Shown: positions 1,289 through 34,786 of the stretch, in pieces
Position numbering within the stretch: the first letter of the stretch is position 1
Layout of the letters: every line of letters starts with the position of its first letter
Assembly (NCBI GenBank): GCA_038065115.1
Contig: JBBTRS010000034.1
Location: forward strand, 1 to 43,558
From: Patescibacteria group bacterium
Lineage (GTDB): Bacteria; Patescibacteriota; Minisyncoccia; UBA6257; MFKM01
Reading direction: 5' to 3'
Length of the DNA stretch: 43,558 nt
Position numbers and translations under genes: made by a program
The notes under the pieces: model-generated
The model's input: the letters and a program-made list of their open reading frames with translations, nothing else
Told to the model about the DNA's origin: nothing
Databases searched by the model: none

Positions 1289-1297
1289 GAAACTATG

Positions 1298-1449
1298 CCC
1301 AGTAGTCCTGCCTGCCGGCAGGCAGGGAAAACTCGATTTGATTCGCCAAAGGCGAATCAGGGTTTTCTAAAAAACTGAGCAAAAACAAAAAGCAATGATT
1401 ATTAAAAGGTCAAATTATTCTAAATAATTATCGAGTTTCTACTACTGGG
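1298..1449 (+). repeat. TATG-bounded structured repeat, subfamily A, copy A1 (MITE-like element or cis-acting leader)
   Basis: It starts CCCAGTAGT and ends ACTACTGGG, and is flanked by TATG at 1294-1297 and 1450-1453. It is about 88% identical to copy A2 (26162-26291), apart from a 20-nt insertion at 1307-1326. The right-hand ATG (1451) is the hpf start codon. Confidence 0.85.
1307..1326. repeat. 20-nt perfect palindrome CCTGCCTGCCGGCAGGCAGG nested in repeat copy A1
   Basis: It is absent from the otherwise collinear copy A2 (CAGTAGT^GAAAAC is contiguous there). An identical 20-mer is present at 11904-11923 inside a tRNA T-stem. Confidence 0.85.
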
Positions 1450-1450
1450 T

Positions 1451-1795
1451 ATGAAAATCAATATTAAAGCTTCAAATTTGGATTTAACGCCGGCCCTCAA
1501 TCAATACATAGAAGAAAAAGTCGGCTCGCTGTCCAAATTTTTAAAAAAATACGAAATGGAAGGGGATCTTAATGCCCAGGTTGAAGTCGCGCGGACTACT
1601 CGGCATCACCACCAAGGCGACGTTTTTCGGGCAGAAATCAATTTAACGTTGCCCAAAAAAGTCTTAAGAGGCGTTGCCGAAAAAAACGATATCAGGATAG
1701 CCATTGATGAAGTCAAAAACGAATTACAACGGGAGATCGTAAAATACAAAGAACTTTCTCAAGACTTTAGAGCCGACCGGAAAAGAAAAATTTAA
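1451..1795 (+). CDS. hpf: ribosome hibernation promoting factor (short HPF/RaiA family)
   Basis: 114 aa. MKINIKASNLDLTPALNQYIEEKV is the typical HPF/YfiA N-terminus. Confidence 0.9.
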   Translation: MKINIKASNLDLTPALNQYIEEKVGSLSKFLKKYEMEGDLNAQVEVARTTRHHHQGDVFRAEINLTLPKKVLRGVAEKNDIRIAIDEVKNELQREIVKYKELSQDFRADRKRKI

Positions 1796-1827: not shown

Positions 1828-4296
1828 ATGATAAAAAAACTCGTAGAGAAACTTTTAAACGGAAGAGGGGGGTATAAAAATTTCATAACCGAAATCAACC
1901 GATTGGAACCGGAGCTGGAAAAACTAGGGGAACAAGGATTAAAAGACAAAAGCAACGAATTAAAAAAAACGGTTCGGGAAGACGAACAAAAACTTAATGA
2001 CTTTAGTTTAATTTGCCTGGCTTTTGGTTTAGTCAGAGAAGCCGCTAAAAGAACGCTGAACCAGCGTCATTTTGATGTTCAATTGATAGGCGGTTTGGTT
2101 TTACATCAGGGAAAAATTGCCGAAATGTTGACCGGCGAAGGCAAAACCCTGGCCGCGACTCTGCCGGTTTATTTAAACGCTTTAAGTGGCCGTGGCGTCC
2201 ATATTATTACGGTCAATGATTATTTAGCCCGCCGAGACGCGGTTTGGATGGGGCAGGTATATGACTTGCTTGGGTTGTCTGTCGGGTGTTTAACGCACGA
2301 ATCCGCCTATATTTACAACTCTGATTTAAAGATAACCAGCACCCTTGAAACGCCAAACGCTCCGGGCATTAACATTGACAAAGAGCGGGATACTTTGGGC
2401 GGTTTCAAAGTAGTCCAGGAATTTCTTCAACCGATAACGCGAAAAGAGGCTTACCTCGCCGATATTATTTACGGCACCAACCACGAATTCGGATTTGATT
2501 ATTTAAGGGATAATTTAAGTTTGAAATTAACCGACCAGGTTCAGCGGCCGCTCAATTACGCCGTGATTGACGAAATTGACAGTATCTTGATTGACGAAGC
2601 CCGGACTCCTTTGATTATCGCTTCGCCCGATGCCCAATCAAGCGAATACTATAAAATTTTCGCCCGAATAGTTGAGGGCCTCAAACCGGAAGAAGATTAT
2701 CTGGTTGACGAAAAACAAAAGTCCGCCAATATCACCCAAGAAGGAATCGATAAAATTGAAAAAATACTCAAACTTCAAAATATTTACGGACCGGAAAATT
2801 TTTATCTGGTTCATTTCCTTGAAGAATCATTGAAAGCCAAGGTTCTTTTTCGCCGCGACAAGCATTATCTTGTTAAAGGCGGCGAGGTGATCATTATTGA
2901 CGAATTCACCGGCCATTTAATGCGCGGCCGCCGTTATTCCGGCGGACTTCACCAGGCTATTGAAGCCAAAGAATGGCTGGCTGATAAAAGCGTGATAGTT
3001 CAATCGGAATCCCGAACATTGGCCCAAATTACCATTCAAAATTATTTCCGTTTATATAAAAAAATCGCCGGAATGACCGGCACGGCGCAAACTTCAGCCG
3101 AAGAATTCCACAAGGTTTATAATTTGGAAGCAATCAGCATCCCGCCGAATAAACCGATGACGCGCAAAGACTATCCCGATGTTATTTACAAAACTCGTGA
3201 AGCAAAATACCAAGCCGTCATTGAAGAAATAAAAAAACGCCATGCCCAAGGCCAGCCATTATTGATAGGAACCCCCTCTACCGACCAAAACGAAATCTTC
3301 TCAAGTTTATTGAGCCATAACGGCATTCTTCACGAAGTTTTAAACGCCAAAAACAACGAAAGAGAAGGCTCTATAATCGCCCAAGCCGGAAAATTTAAAG
3401 CGGTAACTGTGGCGACCAACCGAGCCGGTCGGGGAGTGGATATTGTGCTGGGCGGCAACCCGCCAGACCACCAAGAAGCCGAAAAAATCAAAAGTTTGGG
3501 CGGACTCTGCGTAATCGGCACGGAAAGACACGAAGCCCGCCGCATTGACAATCAATTGCGGGGCCGAACCGGCCGCCAAGGCGATCCCGGTTCTTCCGTG
3601 TTTTTTTTATCGCTTGAAGACGACCTTCTAAAAATTTTCGGCGGCGACAGAATCAAAAATTTAATGCAGGCTTTTAAAGTGCCGGACGACGTGCCCATAG
3701 AATCAGGCCTTGTTTCCAAAGCCGTCAACCAGGCCCAGACAAAAATTGAAGGATTTAATTTTGACATCCGCCGCCATCTTCTTGATTTTGACGATATTCT
3801 CAATAAACAGCGAAGTTTTATCTATGGCCAGCGTCAAAAAATTTTAATTGCCGTTGAAAAAGGCGATTTTCAATCTTCCTTGAAAGAAATTACCGCTCAA
3901 GATTTAAGCGATGAGCAAAAAATAAAATTGAATCCGGAATCGGAAACTTTCCTCGGCCAGCAAATATTAAGAATTATGGACTTGCTTTGGATGGAAAATT
4001 TAGAAAATTTGGAATCCCTTCGGGAAGCGGTCGGTTTGCGGGCTTACGGCCAACACGAACCGCTCGTGGAATATCGCCGGGAAAGCTATCGTTTATTCAA
4101 AGAATTTCAGGCTAATTTCCGAAATTTAACTTTGGAAATCACTTCTAAGGTTTTAGCCAACCCCGTCATTTCTTCTCCGGAACAAAAACTTTCTTCACCC
4201 GCCTCCGCTAACGCCACGACAGATAAAAAACTAAACCGCAACGATCCCTGCTGGTGCGGCAGCGGCAAAAAATATAAAAAGTGTCATGGGGTGTAG
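1828..4296 (+). CDS. secA: preprotein translocase ATPase SecA
   Basis: 822 aa. It has Walker A (MLTGEGKTL), the DEAD-like motor motif (VIDEIDSILIDEARTPLII), the TNRAGRGVDI motif, and a C-terminal zinc finger (CWCGSGKKYKKCHG). Confidence 0.97.
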   Translation: MIKKLVEKLLNGRGGYKNFITEINRLEPELEKLGEQGLKDKSNELKKTVREDEQKLNDFSLICLAFGLVREAAKRTLNQRHFDVQLIGGLVLHQGKIAEMLTGEGKTLAATLPVYLNALSGRGVHIITVNDYLARRDAVWMGQVYDLLGLSVGCLTHESAYIYNSDLKITSTLETPNAPGINIDKERDTLGGFKVVQEFLQPITRKEAYLADIIYGTNHEFGFDYLRDNLSLKLTDQVQRPLNYAVIDEIDSILIDEARTPLIIASPDAQSSEYYKIFARIVEGLKPEEDYLVDEKQKSANITQEGIDKIEKILKLQNIYGPENFYLVHFLEESLKAKVLFRRDKHYLVKGGEVIIIDEFTGHLMRGRRYSGGLHQAIEAKEWLADKSVIVQSESRTLAQITIQNYFRLYKKIAGMTGTAQTSAEEFHKVYNLEAISIPPNKPMTRKDYPDVIYKTREAKYQAVIEEIKKRHAQGQPLLIGTPSTDQNEIFSSLLSHNGILHEVLNAKNNEREGSIIAQAGKFKAVTVATNRAGRGVDIVLGGNPPDHQEAEKIKSLGGLCVIGTERHEARRIDNQLRGRTGRQGDPGSSVFFLSLEDDLLKIFGGDRIKNLMQAFKVPDDVPIESGLVSKAVNQAQTKIEGFNFDIRRHLLDFDDILNKQRSFIYGQRQKILIAVEKGDFQSSLKEITAQDLSDEQKIKLNPESETFLGQQILRIMDLLWMENLENLESLREAVGLRAYGQHEPLVEYRRESYRLFKEFQANFRNLTLEITSKVLANPVISSPEQKLSSPASANATTDKKLNRNDPCWCGSGKKYKKCHGV

Positions 4297-7292: not shown

Positions 7293-7332
7293 TTACTATT
7301 GTAATTCCACGATCGCGGAATCATAATAGTAA
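7293..7332. repeat. 40-nt imperfect palindrome centred on CGATCG (copy 1 of 2); probable bidirectional terminator or REP-like element
   Basis: The sequence is TTACTATTGTAATTCCACGATCGCGGAATCATAATAGTAA. It is flanked by an A-run upstream and a T-run downstream. A near-identical element lies at 24281-24324. Confidence 0.75.
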
Positions 7333-7358
7333 ATTTTCTCTGAAAAAAATGAAAAGAT

Positions 7359-8532: not shown

Positions 8533-10680
8533 ATGCCGGTTATAATGAAAGAAATGGAAAAAGCCCCCAAAAAAAATATTTCCTTTGTTCTCGCCGATAT
8601 TAAACACCCGTCAAAAGTGTTTGCCTCTCCGATAGCCAAACTCCGCCAAAAAGATTTCCAGCCAACTTTCTTTTTAGAGAACGCCGCCGGAAAAAAATAT
8701 CGTAAAATTTCAGTTCGGCGGCCAAACAAGATTTCTTTTTCCAAAATAATCTTAATCGGTTTAAGTATTGTTGTTTTAACTTCAACCTTTGCCGGTTATT
8801 TGGTTTTTCTAAAATTCGGCAACCCCAAAAATCTTATTACGGCAAAAGTCAGTTTAATTGCTAATAATTTCCAACAAGCCGTAACGGCCTTAAATAATTT
8901 TGAACCCCGAAAAGCGACAATTTTTTTTGAAAAAAATAATTCTGAATTAATCTCGATTAAAAACTATTTCCGGCGTTTCCATTTAACAAAGATTCTGAAC
9001 TGGGGAGGATTTTTTAACGAAACCCTGGCTCTAAATCAGTCGGCTTTGGCCATTTCCCGAAATCTGGAAAACCTCCAAACAAAAGGACTGGCTCTCTTTT
9101 TAAGCGGCAACGGGGAGGAGTTGACGGCGATAGTCAAAAATCTTCAAAAAGAAATCAACAATGTCAGCCAAACCGCCAATTTAATCCGCAACCAGACAGC
9201 TTCCATCAGCGGCAAAATTGCTTTCCTGAAAGGGAATCTGATAGACCTTGGCCAAATCAATCAAAACCTAACCGACAATTATCTCAATTACAGCGTGAAA
9301 TTTTATCAGATAGAAAACAGCTTGGCCGGCCTGCTGGACATTCTCCAATCAGAAAACGATATCCATTGGCTGGTTTTTTTTCAAAATCCGGCCGAAATTA
9401 GACCTGCCGGCGGCTTTTTGGGAAGCTACGCGGATTTAACGATAAACTCCGGCCGGCTGGTTAATATAGACATCCGAGATATTTACGACCCCGACGGCCA
9501 ATTAACAACAAAAATAATTCCGCCTTTGCCGCTTCAAGCGATAACAACCAGTTGGGGCGCCAGAGACGCCAATTGGTTTTTTGATTTTCCGCTTTCCGCC
9601 AAAAAAGTGACGGAATTACTAGAAGCCTCCAAAATTTATCAGGAAAAGAATATCCAATTTTCCGGAGTTATCGCTTTGAATATTAAAATTTTAGAAAGCG
9701 TCTTGGAGCTTAGCGGACCGATAAAATTATCCGATTATCAATTTGAAATCAACCGGAATAATTTTTTAAAAGAAATCCAAAAAGAAGTTGAAGCCGGAAC
9801 GGACAAGGCGAAAGGCGAGCCCAAACGCATCCTTAAAATTCTGGCCCCCGTTCTTTTGGAAAAAATAAGCAACTTCAACAACAATCAAAAGAAAGAATTT
9901 GCGGAAAAACTGAAACTCCATTTAAACCAAAAAGACATTATGCTCTTTGCCAAAGAACCGCGGCTTCAAAATTTTTTCAGCCAAAACGGTTTTGACGGCG
10001 GAGTTTATAAATTGCCCAATAATTTTTGGGGCGGTTATTTAGCGGTGGTCAACGCCAATATTGCCGGCGGGAAAAGCGACTTCTTCGTAAATCAGGAAAT
10101 TGATTTTCGGATAAATCTGGAAAACGACGGCAAAGCCAATAATCAGTTAAAATTAACCAGAGCCCATTCCGGCAATGCTGAAAAAGATTATTGGTGGCGG
10201 GCCGCCAATCAAAATTTTATTAAAATTCTTGCTTCGCCCGAATCAAAACTTCTCACCCTTAACGGCAACAGCCAAAAAACCGTAAAGCCGCCGATTGACT
10301 ATCAAAAAAATAATTATCGGGAAGATTCCGACCTTCAAATGATAGAAAAAGGACAGGAATTTTCAGAAAATTTTAGTGCCTGGCTGGGCGAAGAGTCGGG
10401 CAAAACGGCCTGGTCAACCTGGTTCAATCTGCCGGCTGGCAAAACAAAAACACTGGAGCTGAAATACGAAACACCGGCGCTTGTTTACCCCTCTCCAAAA
10501 ACAGGCCAAATCTACCAATTCATTTTTGATAAACAATCGGGAGTAAACGGAAAATTAAAAACGGCCATTGAAGCGCCCCCCGGTTATAAATGGCAGGAAA
10601 ATCAAAACCCTGTTTACGAATACCAAAACGATAATCCGCCGGCTCGTCTGATTATCAACCTGACTCTATTAAGCATATGA
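8533..10680 (+). CDS. DUF4012 domain-containing membrane-anchored protein
   Basis: 715 aa with one N-terminal TM helix. It contains the DUF4012 hallmark NPAEIRPAGGFLGSYADL. It is adjacent to a polysaccharide locus, as is usual for this family. Confidence 0.72.
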   Translation: MPVIMKEMEKAPKKNISFVLADIKHPSKVFASPIAKLRQKDFQPTFFLENAAGKKYRKISVRRPNKISFSKIILIGLSIVVLTSTFAGYLVFLKFGNPKNLITAKVSLIANNFQQAVTALNNFEPRKATIFFEKNNSELISIKNYFRRFHLTKILNWGGFFNETLALNQSALAISRNLENLQTKGLALFLSGNGEELTAIVKNLQKEINNVSQTANLIRNQTASISGKIAFLKGNLIDLGQINQNLTDNYLNYSVKFYQIENSLAGLLDILQSENDIHWLVFFQNPAEIRPAGGFLGSYADLTINSGRLVNIDIRDIYDPDGQLTTKIIPPLPLQAITTSWGARDANWFFDFPLSAKKVTELLEASKIYQEKNIQFSGVIALNIKILESVLELSGPIKLSDYQFEINRNNFLKEIQKEVEAGTDKAKGEPKRILKILAPVLLEKISNFNNNQKKEFAEKLKLHLNQKDIMLFAKEPRLQNFFSQNGFDGGVYKLPNNFWGGYLAVVNANIAGGKSDFFVNQEIDFRINLENDGKANNQLKLTRAHSGNAEKDYWWRAANQNFIKILASPESKLLTLNGNSQKTVKPPIDYQKNNYREDSDLQMIEKGQEFSENFSAWLGEESGKTAWSTWFNLPAGKTKTLELKYETPALVYPSPKTGQIYQFIFDKQSGVNGKLKTAIEAPPGYKWQENQNPVYEYQNDNPPARLIINLTLLSI

Positions 10681-11575: not shown

Positions 11576-11789
11576 AGATTAAATTTTCAGAAATTTTGCC
11601 GATTGATTCGACCGCGCGAAGCGCGATAGAGAACGGAACTGACCGCTTCCGCTTCGCGCGATGCTGTTCAATGCCGGAAATCTTAGGTAAAATAGGCTCA
11701 AGCGGACTCTTGAATGTATTCAAGCTCGTCCCGCCAAAGCCGGAGTAGCTCAGTGGTAGAGTAGCTGTTTCGCCAGCTCCGTTAGAGAT

Positions 11790-11860
11790 GCCGATGTAGC
11801 TTAGTGGCAAAGCAATGGTTTCGTAAACCATGGACGGCAGTTCGATTCTGCCCATCGGCT
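11790..11860 (+). tRNA. tRNA-Thr(CGU), nested inside the interrupted tRNA-like gene
   Basis: The cloverleaf is GCCGATG TA GCTT AGTGGCA AAGC A ATGGT TTCGTAA ACCAT GGAC GGCAG TTCGATT CTGCC CATCGGC T. All stems are Watson-Crick. No CCA is encoded. Confidence 0.88.
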
Positions 11861-11903
11861 CATCGGTATCTCTAACAGGGTAAACAAGTCGCGAGTTCGA
11901 ATC

Positions 11904-11923
11904 CCTGCCTGCCGGCAGGCAGG
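11904..11923. repeat. 20-nt perfect palindrome CCTGCCTGCCGGCAGGCAGG inserted in a tRNA T-stem
   Basis: It is identical to 1307-1326. Removing it restores GCGAG/CTCGC T-stem pairing. Confidence 0.8.
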
Positions 11924-11938
11924 TCGCCTCCGGCTCAT

Positions 11939-12331: not shown

Positions 12332-12378
12332 TAAATTTTTATTTGTTTTGAAATAAGAGTATAATGCTATTATATATG

Positions 12379-12527
12379 CCCAGTAGTGAGCCCGCGATTG
12401 CTTCAGTTTAATTTATCTCGCGGCTTTTAGCTGGACGATAGATCGATTATAACAAATTAAAGTCAAATAAACAAATCAGAACCGCGATAAACTGAAGATA
12501 AATTAATATCGCGGGTCTACTACTGGG
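12379..12527 (+). repeat. TATG-bounded structured repeat, subfamily B, copy B1
   Basis: The sequence runs CCCAGTAGTGAGCCCGCGAT...ATCGCGGGTCTACTACTGGG. It is flanked by TATG at 12375-12378 and 12528-12531. It is homologous to 26011-26157. The right-hand ATG (12529) is the prfB start codon. Confidence 0.85.
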
Positions 12528-12528
12528 T

Positions 12529-13230
12529 ATGATCAATCAAAATACGGCAATTATTTCTGTCTACGCCGGCGTCGGGGGAGAAGACGCCAAAGATTGGGTG
12601 GAAATGCTCTTGAGGATGTATCAAAAATACGCCCAACAAAATAATTGGAAAGTCCGGTCAATCAACAATCATACATCGGAAATAATCGGGGAAAACGCTT
12701 ACGGCCTGCTTAAAAACGAATCCGGAGTTCATCGTTTAATCAGAATTTCTCCGTTTGACGCCAAAAAACTTCGCCATACTTCTTTTGCTTTGGTTGAAGC
12801 TCTGCCGGAACTGCCGGAATTAGAAGAAAAAAAATTGGTTATTCCCGATGAAGATTTAAGAATAGAACTTTGCCGTTCCAGCGGTCCGGGCGGTCAAAAT
12901 GTCAATAAAAGAGAAACCGCGGTCAGGATTATTCATTTGCCGACCGGTTTAACCGCCGCTTCGCAGGCTGAACGCTCCCAAGCTCAAAACCGAGAATTAG
13001 CGTTAAAATTGCTAAAATCAAAACTTTTTAAATTAATGACTGAACGCCAGGAAAAAGAACTAAGCAATCTTCGGACTAAAATAACCCCCGATTGGGGCCA
13101 TCAAATACGCTCCTATGTGCTTCATCCTTATCAAATGGTCAAAGACCACCGCACCGGAGTTAAAACCAGCAATACTGAAGCGGTTTTAGAGGGAAATCTT
13201 GATAAATTCATCAAAAAATCTATAATATAA
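12529..13230 (+). CDS. prfB: peptide chain release factor 2, short form lacking N-terminal domain 1
   Basis: 233 aa. It has the SPF stop-recognition tripeptide (RISPFD) and the GGQ motif (SSGPGGQNVNK). It begins at the equivalent of the domain 2 start (IISVYAGVGGEDAKDW). Confidence 0.85.
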   Translation: MINQNTAIISVYAGVGGEDAKDWVEMLLRMYQKYAQQNNWKVRSINNHTSEIIGENAYGLLKNESGVHRLIRISPFDAKKLRHTSFALVEALPELPELEEKKLVIPDEDLRIELCRSSGPGGQNVNKRETAVRIIHLPTGLTAASQAERSQAQNRELALKLLKSKLFKLMTERQEKELSNLRTKITPDWGHQIRSYVLHPYQMVKDHRTGVKTSNTEAVLEGNLDKFIKKSII

Positions 13231-24280: not shown

Positions 24281-24324
24281 ATTTACTATTGTAAATCCAC
24301 GATCGTGGAATTACAATAGTAAAT
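24281..24324. repeat. 44-nt near-perfect palindrome centred on CGATCG (copy 2 of 2)
   Basis: ATTTACTATTGTAAATCCACGA pairs with TCGTGGAATTACAATAGTAAAT as 22 bp with one mismatch. It is homologous to 7293-7332. Confidence 0.8.
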
Positions 24325-24336
24325 AACGATGAAGCG

Positions 24337-26003: not shown

Positions 26004-26010
26004 TCTTATG

Positions 26011-26157
26011 CCCAGTAGTGAGCCCGCGATTGCTTTAGCTCAATTTATCGCGGGGCTTTCAACTGGGAAATAAATCCATTATTATTAACAAGTCAAATTA
26101 ATAAATCAGAGTCGCGATGAGCTAAAGATAAATTGCTATCGCGGGTCTACTACTGGG
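26011..26157 (+). repeat. TATG-bounded structured repeat, subfamily B, copy B2
   Basis: The termini are the same as in B1. It is flanked by TATG at 26007-26010 and 26158-26161. It starts 8 nt after the stop codon of the protease gene. Confidence 0.85.
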
Positions 26158-26161
26158 TATG

Positions 26162-26291
26162 CCCAGTAGTGAAAACTCGATTTGATTCGCCTTTGGCGAA
26201 TCAGGGTTTTCTAAAACTAAGCAAAAACAAAAAACAATGATTATCAAAAGGTCGTATTATTTCAAATAATTATCGAGTTTCTACTACTGGG
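26162..26291 (+). repeat. TATG-bounded structured repeat, subfamily A, copy A2 (tandem with B2)
   Basis: It shares the middle TATG (26158-26161) with B2. The right TATG is at 26292-26295, and its ATG (26293) is the rplI start codon. Confidence 0.85.
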
Positions 26292-26292
26292 T

Positions 26293-26733
26293 ATGAAAAT
26301 AATCTTATTAAACGATATTAAGGGGTTAGGTAAAAAATTTGAGGTTAAAGAAGTTAAGGATGGATACGCTAAAAATTTTTTAATGCCTCGCAATTTGGCC
26401 AAAATGGCAAATAAAACCAATCTTGGGATTTTGGCTCAACAAAAAGCCGTCTGGGAACGCCAAGAAAAAGAAATTATTGATGGTCTTGAAAAAAATGCCG
26501 AACAGCTTAAGGAAGTTGTTTTGGATTTCCCTCTTAAATCGGGAGAGAACGGGCAAGTTTTTGGCTCGGTTAGCGCTTTGGAAATTAAAAAAGCCCTTGA
26601 AAATTTAGGCTATAAAGACTTTGAAGTGTTTTTAGAAAAACCCATAAAGGAATTGGGAGAGTGCTTGGTGGAAATTGATCTGGGAAAGGGACTTAAATCA
26701 AAAGTCAAAATTAGAGCACATTCACAATCTTAA
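26293..26733 (+). CDS. rplI: 50S ribosomal protein L9
   Basis: 146 aa. MKIILLNDIKGLGKKFEVKEVKDGYAKNFL is the canonical L9 N-terminus. Confidence 0.93.
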   Translation: MKIILLNDIKGLGKKFEVKEVKDGYAKNFLMPRNLAKMANKTNLGILAQQKAVWERQEKEIIDGLEKNAEQLKEVVLDFPLKSGENGQVFGSVSALEIKKALENLGYKDFEVFLEKPIKELGECLVEIDLGKGLKSKVKIRAHSQS

Positions 26734-33415: not shown

Positions 33416-34786
33416 ATGAAAGATAAATTTTTAAACAAAAAGAAGCTAAATCCTACTTTCTACTTTCTATTTTCTAAATTTTTTTTCATCATTCTACTTT
33501 CTACTTTCTATTTTCTATTTTCTATCGTTCACGCCGCCACCTCCCAAGAATTAAAAAATGAAATCAATCAAAAAAGCGCCGAGCTTCAGCAGATTGAAAC
33601 CGAGCGTCAGCAAATTTTAGACAACCTCAAGGAATTGGACAAGGAAAGCCTTACTCTTCAAAAAGATATTAAAAAAAATGAGTATCAGATTAATCAATTA
33701 AATCTAACCATAAAATCAAGCCGGATTAATATTGAAAAGCTTGGCTTGGAAATCAAATCTTTGGAATATGAAATTAAAAACATTGAAGACAAATCGGGCC
33801 TTAAAAAAGAAGCTATTGTTAAATTGCTAAGAGAGCTCCAGGAGAAAGAGAATGAAAACCTGCTGACTATTTTTTTAAGGAATAAAAGTCTCGCTGAAAG
33901 CGTTTTCGAAACCCAAGAACTTCTTGATTTTAATAACGGTTTAACTCTGGAAGTGGCTGATTTGCGGCGACTTCACGAAGAGCGTTCTCAGAAATTTGAC
34001 GAAATTTCCGTGAGCAAACAAGAACAAGAATCGGAAAATTATAATTTACGAAACCGAAAATTGATAGTGGAAGAACAAAAAACCGAACGGCGGAATCTTT
34101 TGGCGTTAAACAAAAAACAAGAAAAAAATTATCAGCAAAGGATTGAGGAATTGGAAAAACAACAGGCCGAAATTAATACGGAAATCGAAGAAATTGAAGT
34201 TGAATTACGGAAGAGAATAGATCCCACGGTTTTGCCGATACCTCGGCCCGGGGTTTTAGCGATACCCATTAAATTTGATTTAGTTAAAAATTTAACTCAA
34301 GGGTACGGCGCAACGAAGTTTGCCCAGTCGGCTTACAGCAGTAAATTCCACAACGGCATTGATATCGGAGCGCCTATGGGAACGCCCGTTTTAGCGGCGG
34401 AAAATGGCCGGGTGACGGCGGTAGAAAATACCGATTCTTACTGTCCTTCTGTCTGGTACGGCCGAAAAAAATACGGGGGTTCCTATGGAAAATATATTGT
34501 CATTAAACACGAAAATAATCTCTCAACGTTATATTCTCATCTTTCTTTGTCAACCGTAAAAATTGGCGATACGGTGAACAGGGGAGATGTCATCGGTTAC
34601 GTCGGCAATACCGGTTTTTCAACCGGCCCCCATCTTCATTTCACCGTTTACGCTAACATTTACAGCGCCGGAGAGAGATTATTATCTCCGGAAATAAAAA
34701 ATAGCGTTCACTGCGGCCCCCAGCCGTATGGAGCAACGATGAATCCTCTTGATTATGTCGCGGCGGGGCTTTCAGCCGGACGATAA
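33416..34786 (+). CDS. M23 family metallopeptidase with long coiled coil (EnvC/PcsB-like)
   Basis: 456 aa. A signal or anchor sequence is followed by about 230 aa of coiled coil and the M23 motifs HNGIDIGAP and GPHLHF. Confidence 0.88.
   Translation: MKDKFLNKKKLNPTFYFLFSKFFFIILLSTFYFLFSIVHAATSQELKNEINQKSAELQQIETERQQILDNLKELDKESLTLQKDIKKNEYQINQLNLTIKSSRINIEKLGLEIKSLEYEIKNIEDKSGLKKEAIVKLLRELQEKENENLLTIFLRNKSLAESVFETQELLDFNNGLTLEVADLRRLHEERSQKFDEISVSKQEQESENYNLRNRKLIVEEQKTERRNLLALNKKQEKNYQQRIEELEKQQAEINTEIEEIEVELRKRIDPTVLPIPRPGVLAIPIKFDLVKNLTQGYGATKFAQSAYSSKFHNGIDIGAPMGTPVLAAENGRVTAVENTDSYCPSVWYGRKKYGGSYGKYIVIKHENNLSTLYSHLSLSTVKIGDTVNRGDVIGYVGNTGFSTGPHLHFTVYANIYSAGERLLSPEIKNSVHCGPQPYGATMNPLDYVAAGLSAGR

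Follow-up and report, generated by a model that had tools for sequence, protein, structure and literature searches.

A 20-bp palindrome shared across bacterial phyla is associated with small GIY-YIG nuclease genes that invade tRNA genes

A perfect 20-bp palindrome (CCTGCCTGCCGGCAGGCAGG; PAL) occurs as an exact insertion at two sites in a Patescibacteria (CPR) genome from Hainich groundwater, and the identical 20 bases are present in more than 150 unrelated bacterial and viral sequences. Although about 90% of these copies have no nuclease gene nearby, PAL is physically coupled to a family of GIY-YIG nucleases of about 78 amino acids (UPF0213/Slx1-like, more than 7,000 homologs), whose genes are lodged in tRNA genes. 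In 8 of 8 family members chosen without regard to PAL, the palindrome or a derivative lies in a partial tRNA copy beside the nuclease gene. Searches of the available literature library, including searches for the exact strings, found no description of PAL or of this pairing.

The window analyzed here, i.e., the entire stretch of 43,558 nucleotides, is an ordinary genome segment that carries murB, hpf, secA, cell-wall genes, translation genes, and four tRNAs. PAL lies at positions 1307-1326 and 11904-11923; there are no further copies in the window with up to three mismatches, and none was expected in 100 dinucleotide-preserving shuffles. As single-stranded DNA, it folds into an 8-bp stem with a CCGG loop (-8 kcal/mol). 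The preliminary description, which had reported two precise insertions without target duplication and with unrelated flanks, is confirmed in its observation. Its interpretation of PAL as a minimal mobile hairpin, comparable to REP-type or Rickettsia palindromic elements, is only partly supported: the unit itself encodes nothing and behaves like a dispersed mini-hairpin that, like Rickettsia palindromic elements, also lands in frame inside genes, but several parts of the reading did not hold or were incomplete. The two contexts, which had been called unrelated, are both stem-loop junctions of hairpin-forming DNA, and the tRNA at the second site is not a working gene. The decisive facts, namely the identity of PAL across phyla and its linkage to a nuclease/tRNA-duplication cassette, were not visible from the window alone.

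At the first site, PAL interrupts TATGCCCAGTAGT^GAAAACTCG in the left terminal inverted repeat of repeat element A1 (1294-1453, plus strand), which forms the leader of hpf, runs from TATGCCCAGTAGT to CTACTACTGGGTATG, and ends on the hpf start codon. The paralogous element A2 (26158-26295, plus strand; 91% identical), which precedes rplI (ribosomal protein L9), is contiguous at exactly this point (CAGTAGTGAAAAC), and the alignment of the two elements has a single gap of exactly 20 nt at PAL (CAGTAGT^GAAAAC). Here, PAL forms a side hairpin at the foot of the GAAAAC...GTTTTC helix. All four independently assembled Hainich contigs with this locus contain PAL. A1, which is supported by repeat families D2, D10, D4, and D5, and A2 belong to a repeat family of about 150 nt and two types (A and B); the type B copies are located at 12375-12531 (B1, upstream of a prfB-like gene) and 26007-26161 (B2, directly upstream of A2), and a further member was found at 3753-3894 of L111 (L numbers denote loci retrieved from other genomes and viral contigs). 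All four copies in the window start with TATGCCCAGTAGTGA and end with CTACTACTGGGTATG, their subterminal arms co-vary, and the terminal ATG is the start codon of a translation-related gene (hpf, prfB-like, rplI). The family may be MITE-like or a structured leader; Rfam yielded no match for the hpf leader. The release-factor-like ORF downstream of B1 (12529-13230; PCRF and RF-1 domains) comprises only 233 amino acids and starts at about position 99 of the PCRF profile, directly after the repeat; it is either a short homolog or a gene whose start was displaced.

At the second site, PAL interrupts GTCGCGAGTTCGAATC^TCGCCTCCGGCTCA after the first base of the 3' T-stem strand of an old tRNA-Thr(CGT), and its removal restores the GCGAG/CTCGC pairing of the T-stem. 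Relatives retrieved via the neighboring diacylglycerol kinase gene show the ancestral order ORF, tRNA-Gly(CCC), tRNA-Thr(CGT), kinase. The orthologous tRNA-Thr of L165 is intact, reads GTCGCGAGTTCGAATCTCGCCTCCGGCTCA, and has an uninterrupted T-arm (GAATCTCGCC), and the locus in L162 is also uninterrupted. The tRNA of L165 matches the outer tRNA of the window except for a 107-nt insert in the anticodon loop, a 2-nt deletion, and PAL. The 5' part of the old gene (11739-11772, plus strand; positions 1 to about 35), which is identical to that of L165 except for 1 nt, ends inside the anticodon loop (TTTCG). It is followed by the insert (11773-11879, plus strand), which carries a different allele of tRNA-Thr(CGT) at 11790-11861, flanked by the inverted repeat GTTAGAGAT/ATCTCTAAC, and is absent from the orthologous loci L164, L167, L168, L163, and L165. 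The 3' part (11880-11937, plus strand) has the 2-nt deletion in the anticodon stem and contains PAL, 43 nt from the replacement tRNA. Only the inner tRNA is detected by ARAGORN and Rfam; ARAGORN does not call the outer gene even with PAL removed. In L161, whose kinase is 90% identical, only the new tRNA-Thr remains, followed by CAGGCAGG and TCGCCCTCCGGCTCA, i.e., the right half of PAL and the old 3' end. PAL therefore arrived before these lineages split, and the old gene is decaying. The question of whether PAL is excised from a functional tRNA does not arise for this displaced pseudogene. These alignments are based on a long-gap pairwise method, because MAFFT misplaced the gaps at the nested loci.

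The same arrangement, in which a tRNA gene is split in its anticodon loop by an insert of about 110-130 nt that carries an intact copy of the same isoacceptor flanked by short inverted repeats, occurs for tRNA-Thr in the window (11739-11937) and in L169 (2853-3076, minus strand), for tRNA-Gly(CCC) in L165 (1164-1371, minus strand), and for tRNA-Met in L015 (about 4020-4225). The displaced halves carry PAL or, in L169, a different, 30-nt palindrome in the T-loop, which looks like a serial replacement of tRNA genes by tRNA-carrying mini-elements. The inverted repeats flanking the nested tRNA-Gly of L165 (CCCCCACACC/GGTGTGGGGG) are also the termini of a 75-nt element (241-314) that interrupts a terminator-like hairpin (GGCAGGTAG...CTACCTGCC plus a T-run) at 181-324 of the window. 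The GGCAGG/CCTGCC hexamers of the 181-324 element, which the preliminary description had regarded as half-sites of PAL, are in the opposite order and form an ordinary hairpin stem; there was no evidence that they are derived from PAL, and the element has no Rfam match.

Outside the window, the exact 20-mer was found in at least 120 genome loci of Patescibacteria of many classes, Bacteroidota (including cultured isolates), Omnitrophota (including a single-cell genome), Planctomycetota, Nitrospirota, Desulfobacterota, Bdellovibrionota, Verrucomicrobiota, Elusimicrobiota, and others; none of the first 120 genomes is a cyanobacterium. It is present also in 35 viral contigs of IMG/VR, some with 3-6 copies, whereas two composition-matched 20-nt palindromes gave no hits in the same viral collection. 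The collections of cultured phages, plasmids, and E. coli yielded no clear exact copy. Most loci of 8 kb contain a single copy, the flanks are unrelated from site to site, and copies with 1-3 mutations are common, which shows that the element ages in place. One locus (L154, 3926-4135) harbors a tandem array of about ten 21-nt units, each a mutated PAL plus one base.

Wherever an empty counterpart exists, the insertion is exactly 20 bp and without duplication, as verified for the two window sites and for L165, L106, L037, and L004; in addition, L125 and L147 are filled, whereas L127 is empty. Exact 7-nt flank repeats were seen at 4 of 127 sites, but a 7-bp target duplication was rejected as a signature, because every verified empty site lacks a duplication and any point in a perfect period-7 array is flanked by identical heptamers. 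No flanking position is conserved among the 127 sites, the strongest bias being A at -1 (43%) and T at +1 (39%). The sites are enriched in flanking hairpins: a perfect stem of at least 8 bp lies within 10 nt at 4.2% of the sites but only at 1.1% of non-coding controls, and among the sites with a stem of at least 6 bp, 12 of 20 have PAL directly abutting one arm, where 17% would be expected. About 9% of the sites lie in tRNA-derived sequence and 5.5% in period-7 arrays (0.5% of controls). An array of this kind (CTACTTT/CTATTTT units) is present at 33446-33531 of the window but contains no PAL. Copies nested in other copies (L018, L042, and L021) always lie at the equivalent position inside the central CCGG. 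A transposon excision footprint was ruled out, because no CCTGCCTGCC...GGCAGGCAGG pair encloses a longer element; the solo half-sites are mutated copies of PAL.

In at least eight full-length genes (L043, L047, L071, L074, L104, L014, L057, and L060), including gatB, rpsF, a dapF-like gene, and hsdS, the reading frame stays open only with PAL present, which is translated as LPAGRQ or PACRQAG. Since 20 is not a multiple of 3, the surviving events must carry 1 or 4 extra bases. In L060 (2751-4895), a GIY-YIG domain of the family discussed below is inserted in frame in the middle of a type I restriction-modification specificity (HsdS-like) gene, with PAL translated just upstream of it. A viral tRNA-Met carries PAL in its variable loop and is still called as intact by ARAGORN, with PAL acting like a long variable arm; a 72%-identical relative has the same insertion plus a T-arm deletion (L145, 2239-2330; L122, about 8570-8650).

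Several copies of PAL lie in a truncated 5' copy of a tRNA that is followed by a small ORF and then by the intact tRNA. The ORF encodes a GIY-YIG domain protein of about 78 amino acids; all six aligned members match Pfam PF01541, and the nearest solved structures are the UPF0213 proteins 1zg2 and 1ywl and the structure-specific endonuclease SLX1. A profile search of 1.3 Mb of sequence, consisting of PAL-selected loci, detected 10 such ORFs. Of the 7 full-length ORFs, 6 have PAL 20-40 nt upstream: five an exact copy (at 20-38 nt) and one a mutated copy. The remaining ORF, a more divergent member inside a 23S rRNA gene (L093, 4758-5042), has no PAL nearby. The ORF and the palindrome are adjacent in L037, L060, L099, L106, L118, and L152. 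An all-against-all comparison of ORFs within 1 kb of PAL in 156 loci found no shared neighbor other than the GIY-YIG family, and the high-copy viral contigs share no gene. The family comprises more than 7,299 homologs (E<=1e-8), named from Bacteroidota, Omnitrophota, and WWE3, phyla in which PAL also occurs; a search of the viral collection returned only two loci.

Eight homologs were then chosen only by protein similarity and the length of the available sequence. All eight have PAL (6 exact, 2 derived) in a partial tRNA copy beside the ORF, with the intact isoacceptor on the other side, although these eight are the closest relatives of PAL-linked seed proteins, so that their count is not a family-wide rate. 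Exact copies are located in the D-loop of tRNA-Leu-GAG (L328/L330 and L339/L340), at position 21/22 of tRNA-Arg-ACG (L333) and tRNA-Asn (L337/L338), at 38/39 of tRNA-Leu-CAA (L335/L336), and at 31/32 of tRNA-Arg-TCG, where the layout is reversed (L332). In tRNA-Met (L325/L326), the copy at 21/22 is split at its center by a 37-nt insert, and in tRNA-Leu-TAA (L327), the D-loop contains a degenerate double copy. In the cassettes, the partial tRNA copy carries PAL at a stem-loop junction, namely in the D-loop (21/22), the anticodon (31/32 or 38/39), or the T-arm. The duplication starts at tRNA nucleotide 1, give or take 3 nt. The loci stem from Bacteroidota, Omnitrophota, and marine metagenomes. 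Complete genomes that hold both PAL and a nuclease of this family include Muricauda sp. CP095413 and the curated WWE3 genome MEWB01000001, and culturable carriers include Winogradskyella echinorum KCTC 22026, Aquiflexum lacus, and Flagellimonas yonaguniensis.

The analysis establishes that PAL is a precise insertion, that it forms a family extending across phyla, that it prefers stem-loop junctions and redundant tRNA copies, and that it is physically coupled to one nuclease family; that the nuclease recognizes or processes PAL and disperses solo copies in trans, in the way RAYT is thought to act on REP, is an inference. In this view, which is favored with moderate confidence, PAL is the cognate hairpin of the GIY-YIG family, and both copies in the window are solo copies, one of which disables the T-arm of a tRNA-Thr displaced by a nested replacement, whereas the other sits at a helix foot in the leader upstream of hpf. 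An enzyme that consists only of a catalytic domain and is related to a structure-specific nuclease would fit a palindromic or hairpin substrate: it may nick extruded or single-stranded hairpins at their feet and junctions, and the released PAL hairpin would be ligated into another such nick. Recognition by one conserved enzyme family would also explain the identity of PAL across phyla. The likely effect on the host locus is that the redundant tRNA copy is broken permanently and that the direct repeats of 27-46 nt flanking the nuclease gene are split, which should hinder loss of the cassette. However, no ORF in the window has a GIY-YIG, HUH, transposase, or integrase domain, so that the link for these two copies rests on family resemblance only; the second copy does share with the cassettes its position at a stem-loop junction of a redundant tRNA copy beside an intact isoacceptor gene. 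Moreover, about 90% of the PAL copies have no nuclease gene nearby, and the high-copy viral contigs share no gene. GIY-YIG enzymes are hydrolytic, so that insertion would require a ligase, and no GIY-YIG transposase is known. Other, unrelated palindromes occupy the equivalent place in L169 and L039, suggesting that the position may matter more than the sequence.

It is possible, though less likely, that PAL is a REP-like mobile hairpin moved by another, unidentified enzyme, such as an HUH/RAYT-type single-strand transposase, and that its presence in the cassettes merely reflects a preference for the dispensable tRNA-like hairpins that they create. The preponderance of solo copies, the lack of a nuclease gene in the window, the absence of target duplications combined with hairpin targets (as in single-strand transposition), the different palindromes in L169 and L039, and the presence of PAL in nested tRNA remnants without any GIY-YIG gene (the window, L165, and L015) are in agreement with this scenario. 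By contrast, 8 of 8 sampled cassettes carry PAL or a derivative, the phyletic range of PAL matches that of the nuclease family, no Y1/HUH transposase or other shared gene appears near PAL in 156 loci, and there is no conserved flanking tetranucleotide of the kind needed by IS200/IS605 or REP elements.

Even less likely is that PAL does not move as a free unit but represents a repair scar or plug laid down where this or another structure-specific nuclease breaks hairpin DNA, either copied from an existing PAL by short-patch templated repair or built by adding the same 10 nt (CCTGCCTGCC) to both 3' ends of a break and joining them. PAL indeed equals a sequence plus its reverse complement, as identical additions to both ends would produce, and its location 10-30 nt inside the partial tRNA copy from the cassette junction recalls the offset between the cleavage and insertion sites of I-TevI-type GIY-YIG enzymes. 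Also, the net insertions of 21 or 24 nt in genes indicate that some events are imprecise. However, the insertion is always exactly 20 bp at the six verified sites, no template RNA or polymerase is known, and nested and tandem copies look like repeated insertion of a unit. An assembly or sequencing artifact, a chance match, or an ancestral feature of the tRNA and the repeat, for which nothing speaks beyond the metagenomic nature of the data, is refuted by the zero copies expected by chance, the four independently assembled Hainich contigs, the occurrence of PAL in cultured isolates, a single-cell genome, and long-read assemblies from many laboratories, the empty orthologous and paralogous sites, and the mutated and in-frame translated copies.

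Like REP/REPIN elements and their RAYT (Y1 HUH) transposase, PAL is a short, GC-rich, hairpin-forming, non-coding and non-autonomous palindrome that is dispersed as many solo copies and flanks a single small nuclease gene. However, it begins with CCTG and lacks a GTAG or CGTC head, is not confined to extragenic DNA, is identical across phyla rather than species-specific (with only two copies in the 43.5-kb window), and is linked not to an HUH but to a GIY-YIG gene embedded in a tRNA-gene duplication. It does not qualify as a MITE, because there is neither a fixed-length target duplication nor a full-length parent element with the same ends. Small dispersed repeats (SDR) of heterocystous cyanobacteria (Elhai et al. 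2008, Genome Res 18:1484; cited in PMC3116915) are reported to be units of 21-27 nt, some of them palindromic, that insert precisely, nest in one another, favor heptamer tandem arrays, and have no known mobilizing enzyme; PAL likewise is a unit in the range of 20-27 nt with precise insertion, nesting, and a preference for heptamer arrays. The taxa differ, and a link to a nuclease or a tRNA cassette is not known to have been reported for SDRs. Rickettsia palindromic elements share the insertion into RNA genes and in-frame into protein genes, where they are kept and translated, but comprise 100-150 bp, are restricted to one genus, and have no linked nuclease. A tRNA intron (group I or bulge-helix-bulge) is excluded, because PAL is a plain hairpin without an Rfam hit in a pseudogene. 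Free-standing GIY-YIG homing endonuclease genes, such as segB in the tRNA gene cluster of phage T4 (PMC2330249) or that of I-TevI, are similarly lodged in or among tRNA genes, with selfish spread inferred, but Seg and I-TevI enzymes carry a DNA-binding domain and recognize long asymmetric sites. The cassettes described here differ in that the enzyme is a catalytic domain only and that its gene is accompanied by a partial tRNA duplication and a fixed 20-bp palindrome, which also occurs alone.

Although very small dispersed repeats are known, their mobilizing enzymes, except for REP/RAYT, are not. The coupling of a 20-bp unit by position to one huge, uncharacterized protein family provides the UPF0213-like GIY-YIG proteins with a testable candidate substrate and offers a testable explanation for tRNA-adjacent genes annotated as GIY-YIG nuclease family proteins, for partial tRNA duplications and nested tRNA genes in CPR, Bacteroidota, and Omnitrophota, and for short in-frame LPAGRQ insertions in conserved proteins. 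For annotation, PAL is a simple marker of displaced tRNA pseudogenes and of these cassettes. A more speculative and rather doubtful possibility is that nuclease and PAL together form a natural break-and-replace drive on tRNA genes, in which the nuclease inserts PAL as a portable hairpin at stem-loop junctions and thereby permanently disables the resident tRNA copy, while the cassette or a tRNA-carrying mini-element supplies the working copy, so that the host cannot lose the element. If true, this would be the first transposition-like reaction attributed to a GIY-YIG enzyme and the smallest known mobile DNA unit with an identified partner enzyme shared across bacterial phyla.

Other short GC-rich palindromes recur across unrelated PAL-bearing loci, namely TCCGCCAGCTGGCGGA (PAL2; L011, L015, L016, L027, L032, L040, L108, and L110), TCCCGATAGCTATCGGGA (PAL3; L052, L062, and L070), and TCCGCCTGAGGCGGA (PAL4; L072, L086, and L118). 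They show the same habits, sitting in hairpin loops, in frame in recJ-like and uvrD-like genes, and in tRNA 5' fragments, but PAL2 is no more common in the viral collection than a control 16-mer (55 against 91 loci), so that no collection-wide claim is made for it. The window also contains two copies (90% alike) of a near-perfect, AT-rich palindrome of 42-46 nt, which are located between genes at 7293-7334 and 24281-24325.
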